Positions 9,746 through 55,849 of a DNA stretch of 64,000 bases are shown one piece after another; positions within the stretch are counted from its first letter, which is position 1, and each line of letters begins with the position of its first letter. The notes beneath the pieces were generated by a model, which did no database searches, was not told the DNA's origin, and saw nothing but the letters and a program-made list of their open reading frames with translations. Source of the stretch: a virus (taxonomy: Duplodnaviria; Heunggongvirae; Uroviricota; Caudoviricetes); the IMG/VR virus record IMGVR_UViG_3300032046_000009. One strand, 5' to 3'. Made by a program: the position numbers and the translations under genes.

Positions 9746-9961
9746 TTATGTAAATTGAACCTGTTCTATGTCTTTCTTTTTGATGATTTTTTCGAAACAG
9801 TCAGGGCAGAGCCACGTTAAAGTTATGCCAATTTTTCCTCTTTCTTGTACTTTTCCTTTCAAACGATAAACTTTTAGGCTGTTTTTCCAACAATTAGTGC
9901 AACTATAATAGCTTATTGATGAAATACAAATATTATAATCGGTTTTTGTTAGTTGAATCAT
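9746..9961 (-). CDS. VxFT-tail family, Cys-rich; terminal member of array 1 (tail EQVQFT, TAA stop)
   Basis: track ORF; CxxC pairs; no downstream overlap and a TAA stop. Confidence 0.6.
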   Translation of the reverse strand: MIQLTKTDYNICISSISYYSCTNCWKNSLKVYRLKGKVQERGKIGITLTWLCPDCFEKIIKKKDIEQVQFT

Positions 9962-10200
9962 GTAAACTCTACCTTCTCTTTGCTGTTGAGAAAATCCTTA
10001 AACCACTTTTCCTTTTCCCATTCTTCAATGGGCGTATGAAAACCTAAAAGCGTCCCATGTTCTTTGTCAAACCTTTTTGAAAAATATCTCTTCCATTCTT
10101 CGTTACAACTTTCGCAGAGAACAGCCAATAATAGTTTAATTGGAAATTGACCGCTAACTATTCTTTTGCATTTTCTACAACGTCCTTTAAATTTTGTCAT
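9958..10200 (-). CDS. VxFT-tail family, Cys-rich (KEKVEFT)
   Basis: track ORF; ATGA junction at both ends. Confidence 0.6.
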   Translation of the reverse strand: MTKFKGRCRKCKRIVSGQFPIKLLLAVLCESCNEEWKRYFSKRFDKEHGTLLGFHTPIEEWEKEKWFKDFLNSKEKVEFT

Positions 10201-10426
10201 GTAAATTCAACCGTTTCCCGTTCACTCTTCCAATACTCACATGAACAACCTAAACGATAAGAATGTCTAGGACTACCTAACGGAGTTTTCACGTCCCTTA
10301 AAAATCCTGTAGCTTTCCCGTTCGGTTCAGTTAAGTTAGGTTGTGAGCGCATCTCTGTGCATTTATAATAAATCTTGTCGAGATTCCTCTTGTTCGAACA
10401 GTTAAAGCAACCTTTCTCTTTCAAGT
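10197..10426 (-). CDS. VxFT-tail family (RETVEFT); TTG start overlapping upstream ACTTGA (track start 10493 is an over-extension)
   Basis: CFNC...YKC...GCSC motifs; TTGA junction. Confidence 0.55.
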
Positions 10427-10660
10427 GAAATTGACCTTCTCTTTTGTTGTTACTTTGCGTTTTAATAGCCACTTTTTGAAAAAAGACTCCCAAGTATTAT
10501 CTCTTCTATCGTGAAAGAAGTCATGTCGTTCTTGTGATTTTTCCCACAAAATACCATGTGAGTCGCAAAGATAAAGTTTTTCCTCAGTCTGTATATCGTG
10601 ATAATTTGCATAACCTTTTTTACCGCAAATACAACACTTTTTACGGTTTGAATTTATCAT
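10421..10660 (-). CDS. VxFT-tail family, Cys-rich (KEKVNFT)
   Basis: track ORF. Confidence 0.6.
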   Translation of the reverse strand: MINSNRKKCCICGKKGYANYHDIQTEEKLYLCDSHGILWEKSQERHDFFHDRRDNTWESFFKKWLLKRKVTTKEKVNFT

Positions 10661-10836
10661 GTGAACTCGACCTGTTCTTTTTCGTTAGCCTTTTTATAAC
10701 AAACATTTAGGGTATTGCCTTTGAATCCTCTTTCTATTGAACATGGTTTGCAATAACACACGTTCGCGCTCAATTTATGCAAACTATCACATATATTATT
10801 GCAAGTGAATCTCTTTCCACAAACTTTACAAATCAT
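10657..10836 (-). CDS. VxFT-tail family (58 aa, EQVEFT), CxxCGKxFxC...CYCxxC subfamily
   Basis: hand-translated; below the 60-aa track cutoff; ATGA junctions. Confidence 0.45.
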   Translation of the reverse strand: MICKVCGKRFTCNNICDSLHKLSANVCYCKPCSIERGFKGNTLNVCYKKANEKEQVEFT

Positions 10837-11051
10837 GTGAACGTCACCGTTTCCCGTCCCTTTAGACGGTTAATAATCTCTCGCGCCTTCATTTTGTCTA
10901 AGAGTTCCATTATCTCTGGGTTATCGGAAAGTAACTTGTCTATGCGTTCGCCTTGCTCTCTGAGCCTGTCTAGCTCGTACATCATACAATTAAAGCATAA
11001 TTTCTCGTTAATTCGTTGTTTGAACTCGTTTCCACATTTAGAACAAATCAT
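10833..11051 (-). CDS. VxFT-tail family (RETVTFT); likely start ATG 11051
   Basis: track ORF 10833..11087, start revised to the ATGA junction. Confidence 0.55.
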   Translation of the reverse strand: MICSKCGNEFKQRINEKLCFNCMMYELDRLREQGERIDKLLSDNPEIMELLDKMKAREIINRLKGRETVTFT

Positions 11052-11194
11052 GTGAAACAGACCTTTTCTCTTCCTTTGTTGTTGCATTGCTTACACATTC
11101 TTGAACCTATCTTCTTTGCATCCGCATAGTTTTTAACGGGAATATTGAGAGGTCTGCCACATTTTGAACACGGTATAACGAGAACGCCCGTCAT
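11047..11194 (-). CDS. VxFT-tail family (48 aa, REKVCFT)
   Basis: hand-translated MTGVLVIPCSKCGRPLN... Confidence 0.45.
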
Positions 11195-11406
11195 GTGAAT
11201 AACACCTTCTCTTTTGGCTCTGGGGTTTTATATAGTTTGGTTCCTCGCGCTTTCATTTGAGAATTAAGTTCTTGACAACATTTATCAATTTCATCATAAT
11301 CAATACTGTTTTCGTGACATTTATCGTGCATCTTGCATTCCGTACACAAATCCTCATAATCGTACTCGATATAACCGTTATCGTCTATTGTTGTCATGTG
11401 AAACAT
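11191..11406 (-). CDS. VxFT-tail family (KEKVLFT), Cys/His-rich
   Basis: track ORF. Confidence 0.6.
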   Translation of the reverse strand: MFHMTTIDDNGYIEYDYEDLCTECKMHDKCHENSIDYDEIDKCCQELNSQMKARGTKLYKTPEPKEKVLFT

Positions 11407-11588
11407 ACCTTCTCCTTTTGTTGTAATTCGATTAAATCTGTATCAGATACAACATACCTTTCGGTTTTATATCTTATATCAATGGTTCTGTTTGACATAA
11501 TTCTTGTAATTTTAACAAATGAACCTTTGGGGCAATGCCTAAAGCCAGCGTATTTTAGCTTTGCCTTATCGCCAACTTGAAACGTCAC
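11394..11588 (-). CDS. VxFT-tail family (KEKVCFT), GTG start in a GTGA junction
   Basis: track ORF. Confidence 0.55.
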   Translation of the reverse strand: MTFQVGDKAKLKYAGFRHCPKGSFVKITRIMSNRTIDIRYKTERYVVSDTDLIELQQKEKVCFT

Positions 11589-11704
11589 GAGAAAATCACC
11601 CGTTCTTTTCTTCTGTCTAGCCAGCGATTAAACTCTGCCGTATGAATGAAACATCTAAGTTTTCCTGTATCTTTGTCGAACACTATTATAGCACAGTCAG
11701 TCAT
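11585..11704 (-). CDS. VxFT-tail family variant (38 aa, tail ERVIFS with S=TCG)
   Basis: hand-translated; TCGTGA junction giving a GTG start downstream. Confidence 0.4.
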   Translation of the reverse strand: MTDCAIIVFDKDTGKLRCFIHTAEFNRWLDRRKERVIFS

Positions 11705-11994
11705 GTAAACGTCACCTTTTCCCTTTTGTCGTATTCTGTTTTTAAACTGTCCTTTAAAAGCCATCCATTCGGATTTTCTCTCATAAATTGTTCAGCATGA
11801 CTTTTTGCCTCTTCATAAGTGTTAAAGATTCCCTCAGTATCGTATTTTCCTGTTTTATCATCTCTGAGCCAAATCTCTGTGCACTCACATTCATTGGGAG
11901 TATGAGTTTCACAATCTTCATAAACGTCTAAACTAAGAAATTCGGTTCCTATTCTCCACGAATTAGTTCCATCCCAGACCCATTTACCCGTCAT
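11701..11994 (-). CDS. VxFT-tail family (REKVTFT); start ATG 11994
   Basis: track ORF 11701..12042 trimmed to the ATGA junction. Confidence 0.55.
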   Translation of the reverse strand: MTGKWVWDGTNSWRIGTEFLSLDVYEDCETHTPNECECTEIWLRDDKTGKYDTEGIFNTYEEAKSHAEQFMRENPNGWLLKDSLKTEYDKREKVTFT

Positions 11995-12188
11995 GTAAAG
12001 TTCACCTTTTCCTTTGCGTCTGGGTATCTTTGCGCTTTGCATTCTTTATGTTTATAGTTAAGAAAAGGCAATAAGCATAGAGGTTTATAGGGGTTCTTTC
12101 TGTGAACCTTATGAGGACATTCTGCCTCATCAATGCAAATAGGGACATCGTGATTTTTCAGAAGAGCCTTTAAGTTTAAATCCGTCAC
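11991..12188 (-). CDS. VxFT-tail family (KEKVNFT), first gene after a approx 150-nt leader
   Basis: track ORF; leader 12190-12345 contains the palindrome near the TSS. Confidence 0.55.
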   Translation of the reverse strand: MTDLNLKALLKNHDVPICIDEAECPHKVHRKNPYKPLCLLPFLNYKHKECKAQRYPDAKEKVNFT

Positions 12189-12386: not shown

Positions 12387-12635
12387 TTATAAAGGTTGTT
12401 CCAGAAAGACCATTCTCGAAATACTGTTCCGTATCTTACAACTTTCGAGTTTAAGCCCATATTCAGCCTCTAATTGCTTCGCCCTCTTCGCCAGCCCGTC
12501 CTTATAGGATTTAACGCCCAGAATGAGCAGACAATCTTTCATCCATCCCTCATAAACGATTAGTTTGTCCCCCTCAATTCGAACTCCAAATCCAATATGC
12601 CCAAGTTTTCGAGCTACGTTCTTCAAATCAGTCAT
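12387..12635 (-). CDS. hypothetical protein (82 aa), no VxFT tail; 3 prime end overlaps the next promoter box
   Basis: track ORF. Confidence 0.5.
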   Translation of the reverse strand: MTDLKNVARKLGHIGFGVRIEGDKLIVYEGWMKDCLLILGVKSYKDGLAKRAKQLEAEYGLKLESCKIRNSISRMVFLEQPL

Positions 12636-12853
12636 GTAAATTCAACCCTCTCAGGAACCATGAATTTCACCTTTCGAATTATGTCACCGTGAACGAAATA
12701 CTTTGACCATTTTCGTTTTACCACACACACGGTAAAAACAAGTGGGGTTTTTTTTGTAATTGATTCAACTTCTAGTATCGTGCCTACGGGAACGTAAGGA
12801 TTATTTGATTTAAGCAACCGTACAAAATCGCCAGCTTTTATTATTTGATTCAT
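12632..12853 (-). CDS. VxFT-tail family, non-Cys member (PERVEFT)
   Basis: track ORF. Confidence 0.55.
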   Translation of the reverse strand: MNQIIKAGDFVRLLKSNNPYVPVGTILEVESITKKTPLVFTVCVVKRKWSKYFVHGDIIRKVKFMVPERVEFT

Positions 12854-13005
12854 GTAAATGCAACCTTTTCCTTCGTCCGTTTGACCTCTACGACTGTGAG
12901 AATGCCCCCTTCGTCCATTCCGTTTGATAACAGACAGTCTTTCATGTCGAGCAATGTCGGGGGGTCGTCCCCTTCGTATGTAACTAAGAATTTCTTTTTA
13001 GACAT
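12850..13005 (-). CDS. VxFT-tail family (51 aa, KEKVAFT), first member of array 1
   Basis: hand-translated MSKKKFLVTYEGDDPP...; ATGA junction. Confidence 0.45.
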   Translation of the reverse strand: MSKKKFLVTYEGDDPPTLLDMKDCLLSNGMDEGGILTVVEVKRTKEKVAFT

Positions 13006-14715: not shown

Positions 14716-14772
14716 TAATTAATAGATGGTTAATTAAGTATTTAAGTCTTATGGTTGATTAATTAGGTGAAT
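14716..14772. promoter_or_regulatory. cluster of degenerate TTAAT/ATTAA palindromic sites (TTAATTAATAGATGGTTAATTAAG ... GTTGATTAATTAGG)
   Basis: read directly. Confidence 0.4.
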
Positions 14773-15050
14773 TGAACACATTCTCTCTCAGGAGCTAAGA
14801 GGTTCCATCTGCCCTTATCATAAATGAATTGTTTTCCTTTGAAAAATAAAAAGTCAAAAGGCAAATCATTTTTACGACAAACTTCGCAAAAATAATGCAA
14901 AAAGTGAGTTTCCCTTATTTTTTGTCTATCGTGTTGTGAAAAACTATCTGTGAAAAAAAGTGTTCCACTTTGTTCTTCCAGAATAGAACCACAAGACGGA
15001 CATTTTCGAGTCAAGCGAATTGAACCGCAAGACGGACAATTTTGAATCAA
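14763..15050 (-). CDS. VxFT-tail family (ECVQFT), four CxxC pairs
   Basis: track ORF. Confidence 0.6.
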   Translation of the reverse strand: MIQNCPSCGSIRLTRKCPSCGSILEEQSGTLFFTDSFSQHDRQKIRETHFLHYFCEVCRKNDLPFDFLFFKGKQFIYDKGRWNLLAPERECVQFT

Positions 15051-15292
15051 GTAAATTGCACCTGTTCTCTAGCTTCGGATTCTGCTAGATAAGTTGTGCA
15101 ACAACAACCATAACGATAATCTTCCGCACCGTCCTTCAAAATCTCCATAAAATTAATTCCATTTCTTCTTTGTCCCTCAATAAGATGACATTTTTTGAAT
15201 CGAGCGCAATTAAAACAACCACGCTCTATCGTTAATTCTTCGTCTTGCCCGATATATGTCATTTTTTCACCAATGGAAAATTTCCCGTTCAA
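15047..15292 (-). CDS. VxFT-tail family (REQVQFT), CFNC...GCCC subfamily; probable start ATG about 15260
   Basis: track ORF; paralog of 38390..38578. Confidence 0.55.
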   Translation of the reverse strand: MNGKFSIGEKMTYIGQDEELTIERGCFNCARFKKCHLIEGQRRNGINFMEILKDGAEDYRYGCCCTTYLAESEAREQVQFT

Positions 15293-16805: not shown

Positions 16806-17033
16806 TTAAGTAAATTGCACTTCTTCTCTGCCCGATTCTTGGCAATGAAATTGAACAACGTTAAAAGATTCATAAGTAGAGTCTGCCCCAGACAACTTTG
16901 AAAACTCTTCCGAAACTTTTTTTACACACTCAAGACAATAACAGTCATTCGGATTTTTAAGTCTATCACTTTTGCATTTTCCGTTGCAGAAAAAATTGTT
17001 CTTACAATGTGTGCAATGTCTTTTATATTTCAC
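16806..17033 (-). CDS. VxFT-tail family (EEVQFT, TAA stop), CxxCxxxFxC subfamily; singleton inside the MoxR/VWA operon
   Basis: track ORF. Confidence 0.6.
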   Translation of the reverse strand: MKYKRHCTHCKNNFFCNGKCKSDRLKNPNDCYCLECVKKVSEEFSKLSGADSTYESFNVVQFHCQESGREEVQFT

Positions 17034-19744: not shown

Positions 19745-20035
19745 GAAGGCTAGGTCACACTTTCGGTGTAACTTTCCGTCCCCTCGAAAATTAAATTTTT
19801 AGTAGAATCCTGAGTGTCACATAACGCACATAGGCGTTTTTTCTTCCCAATTAGATTTCGGTTTATGGTGAAGCCCTCTGCCAGCCCCCAACGTATTCCC
19901 CAGACTTTTAATCAACTGATTAAAAAAGCACCGACTTCAGGCTTCAGTTCCCATTGGCTTCGCCCTAGCATCCAGAACGTCTTTTTCCCTAGTCTATTTA
20001 CCTGTCAAATGTAGCTAGGGGTAGGGGACTAATCG
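19745..20035. repeat. composite intergenic module copy 2
   Basis: GTCACATAACGCACATAGGCGTTTTTT ... TTAATCAACTGATTAA (19908-19923) ... AACGTCTTTTTCCC..GCTAGGGGTAGGGGACTA. Confidence 0.6.
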
Positions 20036-20154
20036 AACCGAACTTTCTCTTTTTGTTTATACAATAGTTTTAGACATTCGGGACAAAAAAGTGCACGACT
20101 TCCAGCGAAGGGTTTGCAGAACCAAAGTTTTCCACATCTAAAACATTCTATCAT
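20029..20154 (-). CDS. VxFT-tail family (about 41 aa, KEKVRFD, TAG stop), terminal member of array 4
   Basis: hand-translated MIECFRCGKLWFCKPF... Confidence 0.4.
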   Translation of the reverse strand: MIECFRCGKLWFCKPFAGSRALFCPECLKLLYKQKEKVRFD

Positions 20155-20165
20155 TTTCTCTTCTG

Positions 20166-20396
20166 TCAATCGAAACTCACCTTTTCTGGAATCCGAAACA
20201 TAAGTTCAGAAATTCTAATATCGACTTTTCTCTTCTTTATCAGACAAACCATTTGCATTGGAAAATTTCTCTCTTTTTTATGTAGTTCCGCAGACCTAGT
20301 TAATCGGTTGCTCAATGCTTGTAAAGTATGAATTTCACTTTTCAATTCGACAAGTGGTTTCTTTTTCCATTGTGCAAGCGGAGATTTATGGGTCAT
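20166..20396 (-). CDS. VxFT-tail family variant (PEKVSFD)
   Basis: track ORF. Confidence 0.5.
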   Translation of the reverse strand: MTHKSPLAQWKKKPLVELKSEIHTLQALSNRLTRSAELHKKERNFPMQMVCLIKKRKVDIRISELMFRIPEKVSFD

Positions 20397-20608
20397 GTGA
20401 ATGACACCGTTTCTTTAGCTTTACAGAATCGTGAACAAACTTCTTTCAAATCTTTTGGGTATTCCCCAACTTCGGATTTCTCAAACTTTCGCGCACAATC
20501 GGAGCAATAACAACCCCCGTATTGCACTTTGCCATGACTAAGACCTAATCTAGCGCACCCATTATTGCACACGAAATGTTTTCCGCATTTTCCACAAATT
20601 TTGTTCAT
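20393..20608 (-). CDS. VxFT-tail family (KETVSFT), CxxCGKxFxC subfamily
   Basis: track ORF. Confidence 0.6.
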   Translation of the reverse strand: MNKICGKCGKHFVCNNGCARLGLSHGKVQYGGCYCSDCARKFEKSEVGEYPKDLKEVCSRFCKAKETVSFT

Positions 20609-20883
20609 GTGAATCGAACAACCTCTCTCATATTAAACCAGAGATTCCAGCAATATTCCCATCTTCCAAAATGTTTCCCATGAAAGATGCCCCATTCGTC
20701 ATAACATCCTCTACAAATCCAGATGTTATGTTTAAATCCGCTATTTACTAAAAAGATTAAAACCGCATCTATCGTTTTGGTATCTTCGTCTTTATGTTCA
20801 AAATTATTAGAATTGCTTACGTGGAACCATTTCTTTTTTGGAAGAGTTACAGTTATTGGTTTTCCACATTTCGAACATTTCAA
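20605..20883 (-). CDS. VxFT-tail family (REVVRFT)
   Basis: track ORF. Confidence 0.6.
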   Translation of the reverse strand: MKCSKCGKPITVTLPKKKWFHVSNSNNFEHKDEDTKTIDAVLIFLVNSGFKHNIWICRGCYDEWGIFHGKHFGRWEYCWNLWFNMREVVRFT

Positions 20884-21089
20884 GTGAACTCTACCTTCTC
20901 TTTGAGTTTGGCTAAATATTCTGGAATATGGTCTGAAATTATTATGTCATTCGGATATTTTTCATGACTCCACTTGACAAAAACCATCCAACATTTTATA
21001 CAAAGAAACGCCCATTTTCCGTTATTCTTTTCTCCGCACACGGGACAAAAATCTGGAAGTTCTTCTTTATCAACGAGTTTGTTTGTCAA
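20880..21089 (-). CDS. VxFT-tail family (KEKVEFT); TTG start at the TTGA junction
   Basis: track ORF 20880..21131 trimmed. Confidence 0.55.
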   Translation of the reverse strand: MTNKLVDKEELPDFCPVCGEKNNGKWAFLCIKCWMVFVKWSHEKYPNDIIISDHIPEYLAKLKEKVEFT

Positions 21090-21283
21090 GTGAATAACAC
21101 CTTCTCTTTTTCGGGTATTCCCCCATAGCACAATTCAAGTGACCCTATATCTTCAGTAAATTTTGTTCCCCATTTTTTGATTGAACATTCTTTACAATAG
21201 CATAATGTAGCGTCTGGGGAACATTCTTCGTCACAATTACAGAAGAACTTTTTTCCGCAAACTTGGCACGTCATTTCTTTCAA
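21086..21283 (-). CDS. VxFT-tail family (KEKVLFT), CxxCGKxFxC subfamily
   Basis: track ORF. Confidence 0.6.
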   Translation of the reverse strand: MKEMTCQVCGKKFFCNCDEECSPDATLCYCKECSIKKWGTKFTEDIGSLELCYGGIPEKEKVLFT

Positions 21284-21423
21284 GTGAATTGAACCTCTTC
21301 TTTTTGTTTTCTCACTTCACAAATCGAACGTTGTCTGCAACTCTTTTGACAAAAATCGTCATAATGATTTATCTCCCCGACATCGCAGTAAATTATTTTT
21401 CCAGCGCAGTATATTTCCGTCAT
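21280..21423 (-). CDS. VxFT-tail family (46 aa, EEVQFT)
   Basis: hand-translated MTEIYCAGKIIYCDVGE... Confidence 0.45.
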   Translation of the reverse strand: MTEIYCAGKIIYCDVGEINHYDDFCQKSCRQRSICEVRKQKEEVQFT

Positions 21424-21629
21424 GTGAATTGCACCACTTCTTTTAAGTCAACCTCTTCGCAACCTTCTGGACGACCCGACCCATGATTGCATTTTTCACA
21501 CCAACAAACGCTATATTCGTGAGGACATTTTCCCGTTATTGAAGATTTAGTCCATCCTCTCCCTTTACAAGTGAAAGTTCTACCACAATTACCGCACTTC
21601 TTTGTTAGAGCTAATGGATATTTCTTCAT
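21420..21629 (-). CDS. VxFT-tail family (KEVVQFT)
   Basis: track ORF. Confidence 0.6.
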   Translation of the reverse strand: MKKYPLALTKKCGNCGRTFTCKGRGWTKSSITGKCPHEYSVCWCEKCNHGSGRPEGCEEVDLKEVVQFT

Positions 21630-21841
21630 GTAAATTGCACTACCTCTTTATCTACCCTTTTAATAAACTTGTCCCAGAGAAAGGTTGCTTTTGCTTCGGA
21701 TTCTGGAATGTCGGCATCGTTTTTGTGAAGTTCGTAAAAATTATACCATTTTTCTCTGCATTTTTGACAAAGAATATCGTTATTCGTTTGAAAAGATTCA
21801 CCGCATTTTTCACAAATACGATTATAGGATTTTTGTGTCAT
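21626..21841 (-). CDS. VxFT-tail family (KEVVQFT)
   Basis: track ORF. Confidence 0.6.
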   Translation of the reverse strand: MTQKSYNRICEKCGESFQTNNDILCQKCREKWYNFYELHKNDADIPESEAKATFLWDKFIKRVDKEVVQFT

Positions 21842-21939
21842 GTGAATTGCACTCTCACGGGTTCTTTCTCAATTTCAAAACGGTCATACCATTTTTTGAG
21901 ACTTCTATATTTTGTAAAAATATGTTGTAGATGGTTCAT
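21838..21939 (-). CDS. VxFT-tail family mini member (33 aa, PVRVQFT)
   Basis: track ORF 21838..22041 trimmed to the ATGA junction. Confidence 0.45.
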   Translation of the reverse strand: MNHLQHIFTKYRSLKKWYDRFEIEKEPVRVQFT

Positions 21940-22151
21940 GTAAATTGTACAACCTCTTGATAACGATATTTGTTTCGCTCCATTCGTTCTTCGCAAGAAC
22001 GACCATTTTCCCTTACTGTTTTTGCGTGGCATAATCCACATTCACAACCATTACTATGTTTGCTCTTTTCAAGTTTTCCACAATCATTATCACAGTAAAA
22101 AATTCGTCCACACGTTCTACAAGTTCTTTTGAAAAGTTCGGGGACTATCAT
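21936..22151 (-). CDS. VxFT-tail family (QEVVQFT)
   Basis: track ORF. Confidence 0.6.
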   Translation of the reverse strand: MIVPELFKRTCRTCGRIFYCDNDCGKLEKSKHSNGCECGLCHAKTVRENGRSCEERMERNKYRYQEVVQFT

Positions 22152-22528
22152 GTAAACTCAACCTTTTCTTTTGAATGTAAACGTACAAGTTCGCTATATC
22201 CCTCATTTATTTCTAGTGTCATATCTAAAATTTCTGAATATGCCAAGTCGGTTGTGACAGTCCCGTAACAAGTTCCACTAGCAATTACCTTATCGCCCTT
22301 CCAAATCTCATAGTCAAATTGGTAGCTATCATTTTCTTTATCTATCTCTTTGAAAGCTCCAATAGGAAAAATCAGTTCAAACCCCTTATCCCATAATTTC
22401 TCCCGTTTCAAAATGATAAGGATATTTTTCTCTATCGTGTCATCTGAATATTCTTCCATAATATCTGTTAGTTCGGTTTCAAACTCAGGTTCTTTGCGTA
22501 AAGTCCAATTCGAAAAAGTGCCACTCAA
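22148..22528 (-). CDS. VxFT-tail family, larger non-Cys member (126 aa, KEKVEFT), TTG start
   Basis: track ORF. Confidence 0.55.
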   Translation of the reverse strand: MSGTFSNWTLRKEPEFETELTDIMEEYSDDTIEKNILIILKREKLWDKGFELIFPIGAFKEIDKENDSYQFDYEIWKGDKVIASGTCYGTVTTDLAYSEILDMTLEINEGYSELVRLHSKEKVEFT

Positions 22529-43096: not shown

Positions 43097-43446
43097 GTAA
43101 ATTGCACCTTTTCTCTAGTGATTCCTTCTCTGGAAGCCCAACGTATATTAGATGCGATTCCATTTACACGACATTGAGTTTGTGATAAAAATTCAATCTC
43201 AGTTATTAGTATTTCCCCTGTAGTAGTTTCAATCATTGGTTTTGAATCCTTCATTGATGTACTTTCTATATGAAGCCTGAACATTTTGTTATTATCACAA
43301 TCTTTACATAATTTCTGTGCGTTATCTATTTTAAGTTCGATTTCCCAAATGTCGCCACCATTCACTTTTACTGTCATATCGACTGATGAAATCCCCTCAT
43401 ATTTCTTGTTACCCTGAACTAGATATGCCCGTAAAAATTTGCTCAT
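43093..43446 (-). CDS. VxFT-tail family (REKVQFT; T codon ACG)
   Basis: track ORF 43093..43488 trimmed to the ATGA junction. Confidence 0.55.
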   Translation of the reverse strand: MSKFLRAYLVQGNKKYEGISSVDMTVKVNGGDIWEIELKIDNAQKLCKDCDNNKMFRLHIESTSMKDSKPMIETTTGEILITEIEFLSQTQCRVNGIASNIRWASREGITREKVQFT

Positions 43447-43658
43447 GTAAACTTCACCTTTACAGGTCTCTTTAATTCTTCTCTCCATTCAGTAGCAATT
43501 CTTTTCCATTTTGAAAGACGTAAAGTTTTATTACGGTCTTTGATATATATTCTTACTCTTTTTATCATTTTGCGTTTTTGTCTTTTTGCCTCTAATACCA
43601 TTGCAATAATTAGACCACAAATTGTACTTATCATTCCAATAATTAGTAGTTCAGTCAT
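43443..43658 (-). CDS. VxFT-tail family member with TM helix (PVKVKFT)
   Basis: track ORF. Confidence 0.55.
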   Translation of the reverse strand: MTELLIIGMISTICGLIIAMVLEAKRQKRKMIKRVRIYIKDRNKTLRLSKWKRIATEWREELKRPVKVKFT

Positions 43659-43882
43659 GTAAATTGCACTACCTCTCGTTCTAATTCTGGATGACTTTCT
43701 GGTTTAGCTATTATCTGTCCGCAATTGTGACATTGAACAACTTTGTTATAAGAATTCCATTTTATTGCTCCATTATATCCACAACCGAAACAAATATTAG
43801 AATGTATAGACCTATGTTCTCGCGTAGTCAAACGAACCAAACCACAATCTTTATCATAATGCAAAACTTTGAGTTGTTTCAT
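43655..43882 (-). CDS. VxFT-tail family (REVVQFT)
   Basis: track ORF. Confidence 0.6.
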   Translation of the reverse strand: MKQLKVLHYDKDCGLVRLTTREHRSIHSNICFGCGYNGAIKWNSYNKVVQCHNCGQIIAKPESHPELEREVVQFT

Positions 43883-44061
43883 GTGAATTGAACCTTCTCC
43901 CGTTCATTCATAATTGACACATAAACCGTACAATGTTCTCTTATTCTGCAAGATTTTATGCAATATTCTTTGTTAAGCGAATTATGTACTGTGCATCCCG
44001 AAATACTCCATTTAACGTTCAGTTTAGAAGGATGCGTTAAAAGAACTGGTTCAGCACTCAT
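43879..44061 (-). CDS. VxFT-tail family (REKVQFT)
   Basis: track ORF. Confidence 0.6.
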   Translation of the reverse strand: MSAEPVLLTHPSKLNVKWSISGCTVHNSLNKEYCIKSCRIREHCTVYVSIMNEREKVQFT

Positions 44062-44309
44062 GTAAACTGCACCACTTCTCGTTCTTCATATTTCCCACTC
44101 ATAAAGTTTTCCCAAGAATTAGTCCACGCACTTTGGAATTTAATAGAATCAACATTCTTTACTTCCTTATCATAAACTTTTCCCCACGCCGCACGACAAT
44201 TTGGGCAAAGATAAACAGTTTCCAAATTTTGTCCATTTTTATCAATTGGATGTACTCTTACTAACGCATCAGACATATTATTGCACTTGTCACATGGTCT
44301 CTTCATCAT
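44058..44309 (-). CDS. VxFT-tail family (REVVQFT)
   Basis: track ORF. Confidence 0.6.
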   Translation of the reverse strand: MMKRPCDKCNNMSDALVRVHPIDKNGQNLETVYLCPNCRAAWGKVYDKEVKNVDSIKFQSAWTNSWENFMSGKYEEREVVQFT

Positions 44310-44554
44310 GTAAATTGTACCCTCTCTTTAAGTCTCATCTCTTCGATTATTACTTTTAGCCCTAGATAATTCGAGAAATACATTGAGAATTCATATGCGT
44401 CATCTTCGCAAAACGGTTCAACATTAACTCTTCCTTGTATTTTATAGTAAAGTAAGAATTCTGCCTCTTTTGGGCATTGGTCACTCCGACCATGCATTGC
44501 TACACATCTAGTGTGTCCGTCTTTTCTTATATTAGCAATAGTTGACCCAATCAT
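44306..44554 (-). CDS. VxFT-tail family (KERVQFT)
   Basis: track ORF. Confidence 0.6.
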   Translation of the reverse strand: MIGSTIANIRKDGHTRCVAMHGRSDQCPKEAEFLLYYKIQGRVNVEPFCEDDAYEFSMYFSNYLGLKVIIEEMRLKERVQFT

Positions 44555-44823
44555 GTAAAATGCACAACCTCTGGGTCTTCTGGCGTTACAAAGACGCTAG
44601 TGCTTTCAGGCTCAATTTTAGTGCCATTTCCTCTACGATTCCAAATAACAATAGATTCTGTTGGGGAATTACTTGAACAACTTCTAACAAACATTGCCGT
44701 ACAATCTTCGCAACGAACCCACGGTACTTCCTTTTCAGTATGTTGGCTATGAAGATGAGGGGCTAAATTTCGTGAGCCGCACATAGGACATTTCTTGAAG
44801 TTCTTTTTAAGTATGATTGTCAT
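44551..44823 (-). CDS. VxFT-tail family (PEVVHFT); ATG start at 44823
   Basis: track ORF 44551..44952 trimmed; the 5 prime extension is the overlapping frame of the upstream member. Confidence 0.55.
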   Translation of the reverse strand: MTIILKKNFKKCPMCGSRNLAPHLHSQHTEKEVPWVRCEDCTAMFVRSCSSNSPTESIVIWNRRGNGTKIEPESTSVFVTPEDPEVVHFT

Positions 44824-44987
44824 GTGAACTGTACCTTCTTCTCTCCTTCTATATATTTTTTCCGTGCTATTTTTGCACAAGCAACAGAACAAAAGCCCTT
44901 TTGACTTGAAAGAGTGCCGTTGTATATGTATTCTTTGTGGCATATTGAGCAAGTTCTAGGACCATTACCATGTCTATGTCGTTTCAA
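44820..44987 (-). CDS. VxFT-tail family (55 aa, KKVQFT), TTG start
   Basis: hand-translated (L)KRHRHGNGPRTCSICHKEY... Confidence 0.45.
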   Translation of the reverse strand: MKRHRHGNGPRTCSICHKEYIYNGTLSSQKGFCSVACAKIARKKYIEGEKKVQFT

Positions 44988-45085
44988 GTGAATTGCACCT
45001 TCTCTTTCTGATATTCTTTAGCAAGTCGTTTAAACCAGCGAAGTCGTCTAAAGATGAGAGGATAGTCTATATCTTTTCTGTTCAT
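44984..45085 (-). CDS. VxFT-tail family mini member (33 aa, KEKVQFT), no Cys
   Basis: hand-translated. Confidence 0.4.
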   Translation of the reverse strand: MNRKDIDYPLIFRRLRWFKRLAKEYQKEKVQFT

Positions 45086-45318
45086 GTGAAATGCACTACT
45101 TCTCCTATTGTGATAATATTTTTTACTTCTTTACTAGACAAAGTTATTTCCTTCCATTCTGGATGTTCAATCACTCTAATGAAAAGAATTGGCTCATCAG
45201 TATTCACAAATGGTCTAACAACATAACGATAACCTTTAGCTGACACTCTGCCATGAAGCATTTTTCCTTCTCGCTCGAACATTACAATGTCGCCAGCCCT
45301 TATTTTGTCAAAGTTCAA
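45082..45318 (-). CDS. VxFT-tail family, non-Cys (GEVVHFT)
   Basis: track ORF. Confidence 0.55.
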   Translation of the reverse strand: MNFDKIRAGDIVMFEREGKMLHGRVSAKGYRYVVRPFVNTDEPILFIRVIEHPEWKEITLSSKEVKNIITIGEVVHFT

Positions 45319-45533
45319 GTAAATGTCACCTTTATAACTGGGTCTGTAAGTTCATAGATTTCTATAGGTTTCTGTTTTGTCTCAGGAAAATCATGCTGTA
45401 ATTTTTTGAAGTGTGTTCCACAAAGAAAGTTATGGTCCGCAAAAGGTTCAATGATTATTGGTCTAGGCTCGTTTTTCCAATTGATAACATATTCCGATTT
45501 CTTAGAACACCCTCTCCATTCACAATGAATCAT
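45315..45533 (-). CDS. VxFT-tail family (VIKVTFT)
   Basis: track ORF. Confidence 0.6.
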   Translation of the reverse strand: MIHCEWRGCSKKSEYVINWKNEPRPIIIEPFADHNFLCGTHFKKLQHDFPETKQKPIEIYELTDPVIKVTFT

Positions 45534-45667
45534 TCTCTCAGAAACCCCGCTCCTTTACATCTTCTACACATAACTCTAATCCATCTATCTCCTTTTGGGT
45601 CTGGATTTCTTTCTATCACGTAACCAATTCCTCTACAAACAAAACATTCTTTCGGTGGCTTCATCAT
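45530..45667 (-). CDS. small Cys-rich protein (about 45 aa) inside array 7 without the tail (ends FLRE)
   Basis: hand-translated MMKPPKECFVCRGIGY... Confidence 0.35.
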   Translation of the reverse strand: MMKPPKECFVCRGIGYVIERNPDPKGDRWIRVMCRRCKGAGFLRE

Positions 45668-45906
45668 GTGAACGTCACTTTCTCTTTGGCTTTAAACTTC
45701 TCTTCGGCTTCCCTTATGCCCTCTGCTTTTCCTTCCTGATAACCCTCATCATGTGCTGTACCGCATCCTTCGTCATAGCCAGCTTGCCATGCATCTGCTA
45801 ATGCCTCACCAATCTCGTCTTCCAACTTCTTTGTATCAATATCACCAGCAATTTGCTCTGCTCGTCTGTTGAGTTTTCCGAATGGGGTTTTACGATTGTC
45901 GCTCAT
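45664..45906 (-). CDS. VxFT-tail family, acidic non-Cys first member of array 7 (KEKVTFT)
   Basis: track ORF; promoter box 45940-45975. Confidence 0.55.
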   Translation of the reverse strand: MSDNRKTPFGKLNRRAEQIAGDIDTKKLEDEIGEALADAWQAGYDEGCGTAHDEGYQEGKAEGIREAEEKFKAKEKVTFT

Positions 45907-47400: not shown

Positions 47401-47572
47401 AAACTTTACGGTTAGTCGAATTGTACCTTTACTGGTCGGTTCCAAAAATCTGAAAGATAATTCTCAGCGTAAATATCAGACCATATTCGTCCACAATGGG
47501 GGCACTTATTTATACACATTATTGGGTCATGAATAGGAACAGAACCACAATATGGACATCTATTACAATCAC

Positions 47573-48328
47573 TCATGGTTCACGCCGTTTTTCCTTGCCT
47601 CGCTCTTTATATTTTCCACCCTTGCGAATTGACTTGCGCTTTGACATTCGAATAGCATCCTCTTTTGCTTCCAGTTCTTCCTCTTCTTCCCAGCATTCAT
47701 CACTTCGAGAACGTATTACAGGAACAAATGGTTTAGCCTCTTCTGTCTTTAATGCGTCTAATCCCTTTTTTATTTCCTTTTTTTCTCTAGGAGAAACACC
47801 TTCTCGCGGAGAACTTAGATAGTCAGCTAATTCTTGGTTATATGTTACTGGAAATGTTGGTTTCTTGAATCTTTCGGGATTTATCGGACACTTCTCTTCG
47901 CCACACCATTTGAGATGATTTGGGTTGCCCATCTGGTGATTCTTATAGCAAACTGGGTTACATTCTTTGCAAGCCAACTCGCTACCAAACCACGCAAGAT
48001 GACAATGAATAGATTTGGTTTCAAGTTTTTCATAAGTTTTAGCCAAGTTTTCCACACTAGCTCCTTCCCATATTTTTATTTCATGATACAACGATATTGC
48101 TTTTTCCCACGGAATATCTCTTGCTTCAAATTCTCTAATCATTTTGAGTTCCTTTAAGGTAACTACAGAAACGTGACCGTAACACATTTCAAGTGTAGCA
48201 TTTCGTTGTTGAGCATGACATATTGGACAGTCCAATACTCCGCCTAAACCTATAGGCATCCAATTATCTGGATATTCTTCACTTACCCAACCGCAAATAC
48301 ATATCATATATTTTGCCATATTAGTCAT
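47573..48328 (-). CDS. Cys-rich protein (251 aa) with basic C-terminal tail
   Basis: track ORF; multiple CxxC and CxxxH motifs. Confidence 0.55.
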   Translation of the reverse strand: MTNMAKYMICICGWVSEEYPDNWMPIGLGGVLDCPICHAQQRNATLEMCYGHVSVVTLKELKMIREFEARDIPWEKAISLYHEIKIWEGASVENLAKTYEKLETKSIHCHLAWFGSELACKECNPVCYKNHQMGNPNHLKWCGEEKCPINPERFKKPTFPVTYNQELADYLSSPREGVSPREKKEIKKGLDALKTEEAKPFVPVIRSRSDECWEEEEELEAKEDAIRMSKRKSIRKGGKYKERGKEKRREP

Positions 48329-48782: not shown

Positions 48783-48789
48783 CCATGCT

Positions 48790-48835
48790 TATCACTACAC
48801 AATCTGTATATAGAAGGAGAAAGGTATATATAAGT
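48790..48835. promoter_or_regulatory. divergent promoter region (CTGTATATAGAAGGAGAAAGGTATATATAAGTC) at the switch from minus to plus coding polarity
   Basis: two TATA elements; GAAAGG + TATATATAAG in plus orientation precedes the plus-strand array. Confidence 0.45.
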
Positions 48836-48837
48836 CT

Positions 48838-48976
48838 TATGGTTATTGTTCTATTGATTACCATGTGCAACTATCGTTGGGATGACTATTACAACATTGT
48901 TCTACTTCCAGCCGACAAAATGAAACCTAAATTTCCGAAAAAAGAAGATGAGAGGGTAAAGGTGCAGTTCGATTGA
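48838..48976 (+). CDS. VxFT-tail family variant (ERVKVQFD), start uncertain; first plus-strand array member
   Basis: track ORF 48734..48976 3 prime part; GATTGA junction. Confidence 0.4.
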
Positions 48977-49155
48977 TAAAAATGAAATGTGTTGATTGTG
49001 GAAAAGAATTTTTCTGTAAAGGTGATATAGTGTGTGAGGAAAGTGTGTCAAAAGGACTTTCTGTTTGTCTTTGTAAAAAATGCACTTGTAAAAGTAAAGG
49101 TCAAATTAAAGAATGTGGTTATAGAGAACTTGGAGAGAAGGTCGAGTTCACTTGA
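48973..49155 (+). CDS. VxFT-tail family (GEKVEFT), CxxCGKxFxC subfamily
   Basis: track ORF; TTGATAAAAATG leader. Confidence 0.6.
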   Translation: MIKMKCVDCGKEFFCKGDIVCEESVSKGLSVCLCKKCTCKSKGQIKECGYRELGEKVEFT

Positions 49156-49271
49156 TTTGCGATGGGTGTGGCAAAGATGTTCAAGTATTATACAAGAAGC
49201 CAAAGACGACACGATGGCTCTGTGAGAATTGTAAACATATAAAAGAAAAAACTAAGGTGCAGTTCACTTGA
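49152..49271 (+). CDS. VxFT-tail family (36 aa, KTKVQFT), TTG start
   Basis: hand-translated (L)ICDGCGKDVQVLYKKPKTTRWLCENCKH... Confidence 0.45.
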   Translation: MICDGCGKDVQVLYKKPKTTRWLCENCKHIKEKTKVQFT

Positions 49272-53336: not shown

Positions 53337-53406
53337 CTATGGGTGCATTCTTCATTTCCACAGGTTGCACAACAATTATACGGTCTAAAGTTAACGGGAT
53401 ACCTTC

Positions 53407-54525
53407 TCATTTCTTTCTTCGCTCCATGTAATCTTCATAGAATGTGAACAAGTTTCCACGACTTGAGTAGAGATGTTTTCGGCATTCTTCTGAAACGGCT
53501 TTAGCAATAAGTGGCATATCATGTTTTGGTGTACCATCTAATCCAAAGTCCGCTTCGACATGGCTTATTGCACCCATGATTTCGCTCTCTGGAATTTGTG
53601 GTAACTTTGGCGGTCCCTCTCGTATCCGTTCGACTATTGGCTTTGGAATATCTAGTTTCACTTTTGCTTGAATATACTCTCCTTCTTTATCGAATGTTTT
53701 CAGTACCATACCTTCATCTTTGCCGTAATCCTTTTCGGTGTTACAGTATTCCAGAACGTGATTAGAAAACTTTATCAAATCCTTTATTGTTCTGTGTCTT
53801 GTTGATGCGTAAAGCTGGACAACTGGAATTTTAGAGTGATAACAATATTGATATACCTGTGTATAAGGAAGGAAATTCTTGAGTGCGGTATCGTAGATGT
53901 CAACAACGAACAGGATAGGCTTTTCATACCTTCTTATCCCTGTGACGCTTGCACCTTTGGCACATTCTTCTACAATTACTCTGAATGTTGGATTAGCTTC
54001 GATTAGTGCTACGATTTTCTCATAATCCTCTACACAATCTTTTCTTACTCTGGCTTGAATATCCTTAGCGGCTATCTCTTGATTATGACTTGATATGACA
54101 AACTCGAACTGTTTCCGCGTATGTGGTTTCTTTCTCTTCCATATGGTAACATTTTCACCATCTTCTTTTATTGTCCATTGAAGTCTAAGTCCGAGCAATG
54201 ACCTTCTAAGTCTGGCATTAGTTGTCAAAATAGGAATATGAGGGTAGTGTTCCCACGGAAGTTCTTTTTGGCGTTTCTTTGTTCCAGTAAAGAATGGAGA
54301 TATACATATGGCTGGTTTATCGAAATCAACCTTAACAGATTCCTTAACCAACTTTCTCAGTTTTGCATTATTACATCTAGTATCAATCAATTCTTTAGCT
54401 TTAGGGTCCCATTCGAATCCTTCTGGAATCTTTCGTGGTTTTCTCATCTTCTTTCCTAATTTCTCCAACCTTTTGAATACTTTGGAAGGTTTCCAGATTT
54501 CGTCTGGATTATCTGCGCCTGTCAT
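53407..54525 (-). CDS. putative covalent nucleotidyltransferase (ATP-dependent RNA/DNA ligase-like)
   Basis: candidate motif I KEDG (TIKEDGENV), motif IV DEGMVLK, motif V AKVKLD in the expected order; 372 aa. Confidence 0.4.
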   Translation of the reverse strand: MTGADNPDEIWKPSKVFKRLEKLGKKMRKPRKIPEGFEWDPKAKELIDTRCNNAKLRKLVKESVKVDFDKPAICISPFFTGTKKRQKELPWEHYPHIPILTTNARLRRSLLGLRLQWTIKEDGENVTIWKRKKPHTRKQFEFVISSHNQEIAAKDIQARVRKDCVEDYEKIVALIEANPTFRVIVEECAKGASVTGIRRYEKPILFVVDIYDTALKNFLPYTQVYQYCYHSKIPVVQLYASTRHRTIKDLIKFSNHVLEYCNTEKDYGKDEGMVLKTFDKEGEYIQAKVKLDIPKPIVERIREGPPKLPQIPESEIMGAISHVEADFGLDGTPKHDMPLIAKAVSEECRKHLYSSRGNLFTFYEDYMERRKK

Positions 54526-55238
54526 TACTTCTCAGCCTTTTGTGCTTTCTCAAGTTTCTTTTTCAGTTCGGCTATGTGAGCGTCTTTCTTCTTTACTTCT
54601 TCTATGATTTTTGCAGTTTCGGGGTCAATCAATGGTATCATTTCTTCTTTTGTGGGTATCATAGTTTCTGGTTTCTTAAATTGTTCGGCTAGTTTTGCTT
54701 GGCGTTCAGCTTCCATTGCGGCACGTTCTTTCTTCTGTAGTTCATATGCTTCCGCTTTTCTAGTTTCCTGATAGTCTGTCTGGGTTTTTCTGAAAATTTC
54801 ATATTTGTAAATATCAGCGTTACTTATCGAATCTGGAACCACCTTTATGTCATCAGGCACACCCATTGCAATTTTTCGTTCACGATTCTTGGTAGCTTGT
54901 TCGCTTCTAATTTGCCAATTACGACATTTCTGGCACATTGATTTCTCTGGAATCATAACATTGTCAACCTCTGTGTTCGGTTCCTTTATTAGTCTTTTTC
55001 CTTTTTCTTCGAGACTTCGAGTTGAACCCTCAATTTTTGTGCCCATACTATTCCATTCGGTTGGAACAGTTTTACGAAATACCTTCTTACATTTAGGGCA
55101 ACCAAAAATATTCCCATCAATAGACTTCGCCAATTCTGTTTTGTCGTCAGGGCAAGTATGTTTCTTGAAGACGTAAACCTTCAACATTGTTACGAAATAA
55201 TCTTGTCCACATGATGAACATTTCTGTTTTTGTTTCAT
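54525..55238 (-). CDS. zinc-ribbon plus Lys/Glu-rich coiled-coil protein (237 aa)
   Basis: track ORF; CSSC...CPKCKK; C-terminal KAE repeats; promoter box 55275-55310. Confidence 0.55.
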   Translation of the reverse strand: MKQKQKCSSCGQDYFVTMLKVYVFKKHTCPDDKTELAKSIDGNIFGCPKCKKVFRKTVPTEWNSMGTKIEGSTRSLEEKGKRLIKEPNTEVDNVMIPEKSMCQKCRNWQIRSEQATKNRERKIAMGVPDDIKVVPDSISNADIYKYEIFRKTQTDYQETRKAEAYELQKKERAAMEAERQAKLAEQFKKPETMIPTKEEMIPLIDPETAKIIEEVKKKDAHIAELKKKLEKAQKAEK

Positions 55239-55487
55239 ATTTCAATCACTATAAAGGTATTACGCACTCGTCCTATTTAAACTTTGCGTCAGAAACTCCA
55301 TGCTCAACTTCTAATCAATGAGAGGGTCAACCATTCATTGACGAGAACCATAATGTCATCTGGGTATTTTGGAAACTCTGGAATATCTAAAAATAGAAAC
55401 AACTCGATAAAGAAGTAAGGCTTTCGGTCTGTCCAATAAATTCTTTGAACCATCGAAGGACGTATTCTAAGTTCTTTTATCAATCGA

Positions 55488-55659
55488 ACTTCACCTTTTC
55501 AGACTCTACACGAACTTTATAACAGTCATCAAATGCATGGGGATTCTCAATATACGAACGAGTTTTCTTCCAACATTTTCTACAGAAACATTCTTTGGTT
55601 CTACAGTCTTTAAACTTGGCATCACATTCGAATTCGATACCGCAATTAAGGCATTTCAA
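55488..55659 (-). CDS. VxFT-tail family (about 55 aa, SEKVKFD)
   Basis: hand-translated (L)KCLNCGIEFECDAKFKDC... Confidence 0.4.
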
Positions 55660-55805
55660 TCGAATTGGACCTTCTCTATTTTATGAAAATAGTTGTAATA
55701 TTCGTGAGCAAGTCGTACAAACCATCTCATACATGCTCTATGATTACTACCACATTGAGTGGTCGGTGGTGGTATTATACATCCCCATGTATTTTTTGGT
55801 TTCAT
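55656..55805 (-). CDS. VxFT-tail family (47 aa, IEKVQFD)
   Basis: hand-translated MKPKNTWGCIIPPPTTQCG... Confidence 0.4.
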   Translation of the reverse strand: MKPKNTWGCIIPPPTTQCGSNHRACMRWFVRLAHEYYNYFHKIEKVQFD

Positions 55806-55849
55806 GTGAACGTAACCTTTTCTTCTTCTACAAATTTAATTGCCATCAT
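55802..55849 (-). CDS. mini-ORF (MMAIKFVEEEKVTFT, 15 aa) consisting almost only of the conserved tail, first cistron after a TATA at 55895-55910
   Basis: hand-translated; ATGA junction to the next member. Confidence 0.3.
   Translation of the reverse strand: MMAIKFVEEEKVTFT

Follow-up and report, generated by a model that had tools for sequence, protein, structure and literature searches.

The window analysed here, a stretch of 64,000 nucleotides from the tailed-virus record IMGVR_UViG_3300032046_000009 (Caudoviricetes), encodes 85 small proteins that end in a common seven-residue tail with the consensus [KRP]-E-[KVR]-V-[Q/E/..]-F-[T/D/S]-COOH. The tail is dual-coded, a peptide and a nucleotide signal being superimposed as two constraints on the same codons, and purifying selection at the protein level keeps the peptide. 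We regard it as fairly probable that the tail is a shared, lineage-specific C-terminal recognition tag that is read by one partner. A recognition tag had been proposed in the preliminary description of this DNA, and the idea is strengthened by the tail being strictly C-terminal, apparently flexible, and specific to each viral lineage. Such tails are not described in the literature searched.

In a six-frame scan of the window, 86 of the 1029 stop-to-stop open reading frames (ORFs) with a length of 33 codons or more were found to terminate in V-x-F-[TSD]; 50 shuffles of the window gave 0.62 on average and 4 at most. The 21-nucleotide junction consensus, when up to three mismatches are allowed, has 64 occurrences where 0.05 would be expected. 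One hit (359-484, plus strand; HVLFT followed by TAG) is without the rest of the motif and is probably a chance match, leaving 85 genes of 33–126 residues (median, 71; 25 shorter than 60 residues), which together take up 18.2 kb, or 28% of the window. They are distributed over 16 blocks, namely arrays of 12, 2, 2, 17, 9, 12, 18, 3, and 3 genes and seven singletons; the minus strand carries 82 of the genes and the plus strand 3. These figures agree with the preliminary count of about 84 tailed ORFs in roughly a quarter of the window, about 24 of them below 60 residues, in nine arrays plus singletons on both strands; the members of down to 15 residues listed there were not recovered, as no credible tail member shorter than 33 residues was found in the window, and the last array reaches 55948 instead of 55849.

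Across the seven tail positions the information content is 1.5–4.6 bits; further upward, from position -8, it does not exceed 0.45 bit. The last residue of the 85 tails is Thr (76), Asp (7), or Ser (2), and the penultimate residue of all of them is Phe, never Tyr, preceded in most cases by Gln or Glu; the hydrophobic residues of the tail are those at P-1 and P-3. The six residues preceding the tail are enriched in Lys, Arg, Glu, and Pro and nine-fold depleted in Cys. Among all open frames of the six-frame translation, the pattern E[KRVQTE]V.F[TDS] is found 70 times at the C-terminus and never internally, and the motif invariably shares the reading frame of the ORF upstream. None of the 16 genes of at least 200 residues carries the tail, which is also missing from many small genes outside the arrays. 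Since tail-less operons of ATGA-coupled small genes exist, the tag marks a subset of the small proteome and not all small genes; these operons, with genes of 40–130 residues, lie at 30456-32633, 50172-51468, and 56793-58681 (minus strand). A junction-like sequence, AGAAAGGTCTGCTTTACATAG (..RKVCFT-stop), is present at 16313-16339 (minus strand) in another frame of the AAA+ MoxR-like gene, with four open codons upstream, and may be a chance match or a relic.

The bodies in front of the tail are heterogeneous, as had been noted, and the tail is their sole universal feature. Cys content ranges widely (55 of the 86 ORFs with at least four Cys and 8 without any), and BLAST comparison of the bodies with the tails removed gave 53 singletons, five pairs, and one loose Cys-rich cluster of 23. 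A check for known families returned, as Pfam matches of the tail ORFs, only assorted zinc-ribbon families, one Lar-like protein (restriction alleviation), and DUF7569. The bodies are thus mostly unrelated and do not constitute one expanded family, so that the "massive tandem expansion" of the preliminary description does not hold; moreover, several orthologues in distant relatives carry other tails. AlphaFold2 models, built on shallow alignments of 7 and 12 sequences, represent the tail as a flexible extension outside a folded body: in the 95-residue protein encoded at 24609-24893, the predicted local distance difference test score is 74–88 for the body and 47–53 for the last 15 residues, and a 71-residue zinc-ribbon member shows the same pattern at lower overall confidence. 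A Foldseek search of the 95-residue model against the PDB gave no match at E <= 0.001, and word-indexed protein searches with two tail proteins retrieved just 2 and 7 homologues.

Peptide and nucleotide constraints at the junctions

At the nucleotide level, the junctions conform to GAR-AAG-GTG-CAA-TTY-ACW-TGA, in which the fourth codon is variable (NNN). The stop codon is TGA in 78 of the 86 tails, preceded by A, T, or G in an ATGA, TTGA, or GTGA overlap, and the final codon is ACA or ACT in 80 of the 86, yielding ATGA or TTGA. As many as 67 of the 85 tail genes begin at an NTGA overlap with the preceding tail stop, using ATG (37), TTG (28), or GTG (2). The TTG starts are credible: of the 28 genes, 15 have their first CxxC knuckle at most nine residues from the TTG, in 12 cases with no in-frame ATG before the knuckle. 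Twenty-eight of 67 is an unusually high share of non-ATG starts; overlapping TTG starts are exemplified by the stop positions 20880, 22892, and 38118, and are also found at most junctions of a related virus (L006).

The Shine–Dalgarno (SD)-like hexamer AAGGTG sits 8 nucleotides upstream of the next start. In coupled tails, the Lys codon is AAG in all 35 cases and AAA in none, as compared with 21% AAG and 79% AAA in gene bodies; GTG makes up 60% of the Val codons (15% in bodies) and GAG 47% of the Glu codons (25% in bodies). Where Val replaces Lys at position -5, the codons GAG-GTN restore GAGGT one codon upstream. Because of this synonymous codon bias in coupled tails, AAGGTG looks like an SD-like element that is selected beyond the need of the peptide. 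The preliminary description had taken the occurrence of all four GTN codons at the Val position as a sign of protein-level selection in place of a pure nucleotide signal; all four do occur, but with the strong skew given above, and while selection on the peptide stands, the exclusive use of AAG and the prevalence of TGA mark a nucleotide signal as well.

The arrays are accordingly operons whose cistrons are coupled by overlapping stop and start codons, the codons of each tail also serving to signal initiation at the following gene; the coupling is plain from the sequence itself, and from it we infer reinitiation. In the proposed mechanism, AAG-GTG would act as the SD-like element, NNN-TTY-AC as the 8-nucleotide spacer of the next cistron, and the last base of the Thr codon together with the TG of TGA as an ATG or TTG start, allowing termination and reinitiation to be coupled. 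The consensus-identical junction GAAAAGGTGCAGTTTACTTGA illustrates both layers, as its upstream frame reads Glu-Lys-Val-Gln-Phe-Thr-stop and its downstream reading consists of the SD-like AAGGTG, 8 nucleotides, and a TTG start overlapping the TGA. On the same strand there are 44 NTGA junctions without the tail, many with purine-rich SD-like runs, and coupling therefore does not require V-x-F-T. Neither rRNA nor tRNA genes were found in the window. Translational coupling with overlapping ATGA stop/start codons and an SD sequence inside the upstream gene has been reviewed (PMC12548453). The junctions share with it the 4-nucleotide NTGA overlap and a purine-rich SD-like element 8 nucleotides upstream within the coding sequence, whereas ordinary coupling fixes no seven-residue peptide, and the TTG share is unusually high here.

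Two other readings of the junction were rejected. Frameshifting or a polyprotein lacks a slippery heptamer, and the genes of relatives do not overlap; recoding of TGA is at odds with the downstream frame shifting at every junction, with knuckles right after the overlapping start, and with the use of TAA, TAG, and TGA by relatives.

The peptide is retained where the nucleotide signal is not called for. About 12 uncoupled tails, of terminal or monocistronic genes, are followed by a TAA or TAG stop or by a promoter-like box, and keep E-x-V-x-F-[T/D]; their SD-related bias is relaxed, with AAG and AAA used three times each and Val encoded mostly by GTT as in gene bodies. In an orthologue family assembled from public data, KEVVQFT is invariant among members of 61–87% identity, and the preceding 7–8 residues are hypervariable. 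The 21 nucleotides thus offer a natural example of dual coding, in which the peptide is one constraint and the ribosome-binding site with the start codon the other; a comparison of coupled genes with terminal genes and with relatives can tell the peptide and RNA layers apart. The lesson for annotation is that ORFs of 33–60 residues and TTG starts are real genes in these genomes.

Tails of related viruses and their possible reader

Relatives were found with the 575-residue VWA protein of the window as a marker, which gave 77 homologues (31–95% identity) on contigs of 40–150 kb. At VWA identities of 74% and 68% (L006 and L003) the tail is E-K-V-x-F-[T/D/S], at 59% (L013) E-K-V-x-L-T, and at 52% and 50% (L007 and L010) [V/I]-K-V-x-L-[I/V]; further away it reads x-F-[V/I]-F-R at 45% and 42% (L015 and L012), E-T-F-[V/I]-L-S at 42% (L008), and L-[E/D]-[R/K]-[V/I/M]-C at 33% (L014). 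In L008, the conserved Leu is encoded by all six of its codons and Ser by both AGY and TCN, the stops are TGA (7), TAA (6), and TAG (3), and the next start lies 3–10 nucleotides downstream with no AAGGTG; the tail Arg of L015 is encoded by AGG, AGA, CGA, and CGT. Because L008 and L015 keep the peptide across codon families and with mixed stops, selection must act at the protein level.

Bodies are orthologous across tail types. The protein of 24609-24893 (...KEVVQFT) matches one of L008 (...EETFILS) with 57% identity over 91 residues (E 9e-31), that of 22151-22528 (...KEKVEFT) matches one of L010 (...KVKVLLI) with 47% identity, and that of 38763-39047 (...REKVVFT), whose start position is uncertain, has orthologues in L012 (...KKPFVFR), L008 (...RETFVLS), and L014 (...LGRVC). 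A profile of the CxxCGKxFxC family run against 1.84 billion representative proteins collected 75 members, ending mostly in VxFT and otherwise in FIFR/FVFR/FTFR, FILS, or VLLT. The tail appears to have changed genome-wide and in concert, with EKVxFT, EKVxLT, and VKVxLI as intermediates, and such a concerted change would imply one shared trans-acting partner for all tagged proteins. Some zinc-ribbon profile matches (P0148, P0154, and P0147) end in ...WRQII or ...WRQVI, one having WRQMI near its end; the WRQ[IV]I ends could represent one more tail type, belonging to a lineage outside this sample.

Direct nucleotide searches were of little use for finding relatives: the exact 21-nucleotide consensus, too narrow a pattern, had no match in IMG/VR, a looser pattern gave mostly single chance matches in metagenomes and only four multi-hit contigs, and blastn/tblastn searches against phage records returned nothing for the window DNA or the VWA protein.

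The tail would belong in kind with C-terminal recognition and degradation tags, and it fits none of the known C-terminal motif classes tested (PDZ, HbYX, and sortase-type among them), in line with the earlier remark that it resembles no described system. The analogy to HbYX tails drawn at that time fails, as the penultimate residue is Phe in every tail of the window, the one before it is in most cases Gln or Glu, and in relatives the penultimate position is taken by Leu, Phe, or Val. Small zinc-binding viral proteins are known to carry PDZ-binding motifs that dock by strand addition (HPV E6, ...ETQV/L; adenovirus E4-ORF1), and the tailed proteins resemble them as small Cys-rich proteins with a flexible C-terminal linear motif and an acidic residue a few positions upstream; however, those motifs occur on one protein per virus, here on 85, and a PDZ ligand of classes I–III was rejected because the last residue is Thr, Asp, or Ser in 85 of 85 tails and not hydrophobic. 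The sorting tags of PEP-CTERM/exosortase, PGF-CTERM/archaeosortase, and LPXTG/sortase systems, each with a dedicated partner, are likewise C-terminal signatures shared by dozens of unrelated proteins and varying by lineage with the processing enzyme. They are tripartite (motif, transmembrane helix, and basic tail) and belong to secreted proteins, whereas the present tail is the last seven residues of small cytoplasmic proteins with no transmembrane segment after it; this position at the extreme C-terminus led us to reject a sortase, exosortase, or archaeosortase signal. Pfam scans of the window detected no sortase-like, PDZ, or TPR domain.

The closest likeness is to the degradation tags of AAA+ proteases. 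Short hydrophobic tags at the C-terminus are known to be recognised by Lon and Clp proteases, and tag specificity can shift from one protease to another, as with ssrA for ClpXP, Mycoplasma ssrA re-specified for Lon, and the C-terminal tag of SulA for Lon. Like these degrons, the tail is a short hydrophobic peptide at the extreme C-terminus, exposed according to the models; tag and protease can co-evolve, and an active-looking Lon-family protease with apparently intact catalytic residues is encoded on the same element. Unlike them, the tag here is encoded in the genome on about 85 genes and is not added by transfer-messenger RNA or confined to a single substrate, its sequence differs from any known degron, and the protease is a viral one that belongs to the archaeal LonB type. 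This LonB has 760 residues and is encoded 8.5 kb past the window end on the same contig and strand (L135:1-1210; minus strand of the window), extending from ~8.5 to 10.8 kb beyond position 64000; it matches TIGR00764 at 1e-73 and contains the catalytic Ser of GPSAG and Lys of EKIxAA. Homologues are found in at least seven IMG/VR contigs: one is that of the virus with F-V-F-R tails (61% identity), and six others measure up to 156 kb (49–56%). The LonB gene is accompanied by a ParB_N gene and a glycan cluster (PIG-L, SDR, hexapeptide transferase, GT2/Anp1, Asn synthase, UDP-GlcNAc 2-epimerase, and UDP-sugar dehydrogenase).

We tentatively propose that the tag is a degradation tag read by the archaeal-type LonB of the virus itself. 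The operons would supply small accessory proteins, mostly zinc ribbons, each with a flexible seven-residue C-terminal tag, and the viral LonB would recognise it as a private degradation tag, giving a set of small effectors a common, virus-controlled lifetime. In more general terms, it is conceivable, though doubtful, that the virus encodes an addressing system for at least 85 effector-like proteins with a co-evolving viral reader, possibly LonB; tag and reader would then drift together between lineages, and the fate of the viral proteins would be controlled independently of the host. As for other candidates, the MoxR/VWA pair was considered because it is kept in 11 of 11 relatives, and was set aside as a reader because the cobST-like pair is widespread in tailed viruses; the window itself encodes an HtrA-like protease and a SprT-like protein.

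Several points weigh against a tag read by one partner, and against LonB as that partner. The E-K-V part of the tail is not cleanly separable from the SD constraint in this lineage, and tail types A, A', B, and E all have AAG-GTG at one and the same distance from the start; the flexibility of the tail comes from models on the shallow alignments mentioned above. The link to LonB draws only on co-occurrence in the same clade and on general knowledge of Lon and Clp proteases. A scan of the LonB flanks in six relatives, which doubled as a negative control for the tail-clustering script, found no tail array within 10 kb of LonB, so that gene linkage gives no support. Finally, concerted tails could also arise from tags that bind each other.

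If the proteins are indeed tagged for a single reader, the tail would be a portable addressing code across a clade of large uncultured archaeal viruses of peat and freshwater sediments, by which dozens of tiny host-takeover or anti-defence proteins are managed as one class. It would also provide a handle on homologue-less proteins, and natural orthogonal tag/reader pairs for protein control in archaea.

A tag without a proteolytic role, used for docking or loading, i.e., for packaging into the capsid, for delivery to a viral compartment or factory, or for binding to a hub of the host, would draw on the same protein-level evidence, as the tail is strictly C-terminal, flexible, and lineage-specific on orthologous bodies. 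The HK97-fold capsids of tailed viruses are related to encapsulin shells, and one tagged protein is Lar-like (anti-restriction), which fits delivery together with the DNA. Encapsulin cargo-loading peptides, which are lineage-specific, and the peroxisomal signal PTS1 are short C-terminal addresses, and in both a short peptide suffices to send diverse proteins to one destination; their consensus differs, and they serve one to few cargoes beside a shell gene. Eighty-five cargo proteins, however, far exceed any known packaging system, and in the window the arrays are not linked to any gene for a shell, portal, capsid, compartment, or import function, the structural module lying outside the window. 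A host hub should hold the tail constant across related viruses, but the tail changes drastically. We consider a docking or loading tag rather improbable.

Still less likely is a β-strand zipper between tags, by which all tagged proteins would co-assemble into a heteromeric body or condensate and the copies would have to match. This would explain the genome-wide uniformity without a separate receptor, and all six tail types are β-prone, positions -4 and -2 being hydrophobic and preceded by charged residues. A zipper of six or seven residues that has Thr, Ser, Arg, or Cys at its end is nevertheless weak, strand pairing leaves the requirement for the extreme C-terminus unexplained, and the tail is modelled as disordered, so that pairing has no support from structure prediction.

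That the tail is a nucleotide signal only, i.e., the ribosome-binding site, spacer, and start of the next gene with residue conservation as a by-product, seems very improbable. The strong synonymous bias of AAG-GTG, the near-universal ACA/ACT-TGA in coupled junctions, and the fixed distance of AAGGTG from the start in several lineages would suit it. In contrast, terminal and monocistronic genes lose the SD-like element and the start and yet keep the peptide, the 44 tail-less coupled junctions function without it, TTY-AC has no known role in initiation, and the motif is bound to the frame of the upstream ORF and never internal. Furthermore, L008, L012, L014, and L015 keep the peptide across Leu, Ser, and Arg codon families, with mixed stops and non-overlapping starts, and the codon data appear largely to refute this explanation.

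A functionless remnant of array growth, by unequal crossing-over or cassette exchange with gene conversion homogenising each genome, is scarcely credible and appears contradicted by the codon data: a 21-nucleotide junction present ~67 times in tandem-oriented genes and common to unrelated bodies is a plausible substrate for unequal recombination, but at ~75% identity it is too short for homologous recombination, gene conversion would not fix residues while synonymous sites vary freely, the peptide is kept in lineages without nucleotide conservation, and an invariant tail stands beside a hypervariable linker within an orthologue family. An integron attC-like cassette junction was also rejected, as the motif is frame-bound and relatives keep the peptide and not the nucleotides.

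Arrays of small early or accessory genes are known from large phages, such as the hyperplastic regions of T4 and the host-takeover module of SPO1. The present arrays resemble them as long co-oriented runs of tiny, fast-evolving, homologue-less genes, some of them anti-restriction-like, but the genes there are without a common peptide tag. Arrays of precursors of ribosomally synthesized and post-translationally modified peptides were rejected, since Pfam scans revealed none of the corresponding enzyme families, members reach 126 residues, and one member is modelled as a folded domain.

Host, promoters and neighbouring genes

The virus is a large tailed one with double-stranded DNA. Matches to the window among ENA metagenome contigs are 86 and 152 kb in size, and the metagenomic contig to which the window belongs is at least 152 kb long. 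Relatives in IMG/VR have genes for collagen-like tail fibres, for a minor tail protein, and for a family B DNA polymerase (PolB). The host is probably an archaeon, because of the promoter-like boxes and their spacing, the binning of one relative in an archaeal metagenome-assembled genome, and the archaeal-type KaiC-like and LonB proteins encoded by the element; a phrog_6452-like protein matches only bacterial phages and is uninformative on the host. The boxes, AAGGTTTATAWR, resemble an archaeal transcription factor B recognition element (BRE) with TATA box and occur 36 times in the window against 3 expected, e.g., at 24576-24587, 27770-27781, 30138-30149, 45939-45950, and 60831-60842 (minus strand). 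The first ATG lies 24–39 nucleotides downstream, which suggests archaeal promoters with very short leaders or none. The array at 24606..26469 is apparently co-transcribed behind non-tail genes (26466-27736) from the box at 27770-27781.

A near-palindrome, TTAATCANNTGATTAA, occurs 25 times in the window against 1.8 expected (e.g., at 14285-14300, 14357-14372, 19407-19422, 19473-19488, 28191-28206, 28249-28264, 36217-36232, and 36268-36283), often in intergenic pairs 50–70 bp apart and frequently just past the last gene of an operon. It is also present in L003, L006, L007, and L008, trailing array-terminal stops in distant relatives, and conservation thus extends over the whole clade. Its role may be that of an operator, of a terminator, or of some other site of protein binding. 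In positions 1-9700 of the window, the GC content is 0.40–0.415, the GC skew is about zero, and long ORFs are sparse, with about 16 of the 36 promoter-like boxes densely packed together with several palindromes; no tail gene was found there or in the adjoining 10 kb outside the window (L136).

Coordinates of the tail-gene blocks, selected members, and context genes in the window.
Feature	Coordinates	Strand	Remarks
12 tail genes	9746..12188	-	4-nucleotide NTGA stop/start overlaps
Final gene of the preceding array	9746-9961	-	Ends EQVQFT-TAA; TATA-like box next
2 tail genes	12632..13005	-	
232-residue gene, no annotation	13594-14292	-	Trio with MoxR/CobS-like and VWA/CobT-like genes
2 tail genes	14763..15262	-	Terminal gene ECVQFT-TAA, no SD-like AAGGTG
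MoxR/CobS-like AAA+ gene	15780-16667	-	AAA_5, weak CobS match; context gene
Single tail gene	16806..17033	-	EEVQFT-TAA; flanked by VWA/CobT-like and MoxR/CobS-like genes
VWA/CobT-like gene, 575 residues	17211-18938	-	Invariant HExxH (80-84), MIDAS DxSxS (406-410); integrin I-domain match
17 tail genes	20029..23576	-	Several CxxCGKxFxC zinc-ribbon members; terminal gene EKVRFD-TAG
9 tail genes	24606..26469	-	Includes the 95-residue gene 24609-24893
Monocistronic tail gene	27800..28090	-	AEKVSFT; TATA-like box on each side
Single tail gene	30168..30437	-	PERVQFT; CGT-GTT, no SD; promoter-like box next
Single tail gene	30593..30817	-	ATGA overlap couples to upstream non-tail gene
Single tail gene	34176..34409	-	KEKVQFT
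12 tail genes	36640..39225	-	Gene 38992-39225 ends EVVSFD-TAA; start of 38760-39047 uncertain
Adjacent arrays, 4 + 14 tail genes	41549..45533	-	Split by TAG-terminated tail at 42496
Consensus-identical junction	42968..42988	-	GAAAAGGTGCAGTTTACTTGA
Member with N-terminal transmembrane helix	43443-43658	-	In the arrays 41549..45533
Single tail gene	45664..45906	-	KEKVTFT
Single tail gene	47412..47576	-	PVKVQFD-TAA, then TATA-like box
3 tail genes	48785..49271	+	
3 tail genes	55480..55948	-	Tails ...VTFT, ...VQFD, ...VKFD
HtrA-like serine protease (Trypsin_2)	61814..62686	-	Context gene

The MoxR/CobS-like gene, the VWA/CobT-like gene, and the gene for the 232-residue protein form a trio conserved in 11 of 11 relatives, the first two having served as markers in the search for relatives. 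The 232-residue protein has no Pfam, NCBIfam, PHROG, or PDB match. An AAA+ MoxR/CobS-like ATPase gene adjoining that of a VWA/MIDAS protein is what defines the viral cobST-like cluster, which is common in tailed viruses (PMC8651126) and is not specific to the tail. Some VWA homologues (P0005, P0020, and P0059) contain inteins (PF14528 and PF14890). Several mid-size accessory genes, at 29203-30099, 53407-54525, 58745-59680, and 32812-33756 among others, include those for an SPFH/HflK-C-like protein, an RNA ligase, GT2 glycosyltransferases, and a KaiC/RadA-like ATPase, and the 40 mid-size genes scanned together also comprise those for a dual-specificity phosphatase and the SprT-like protein.

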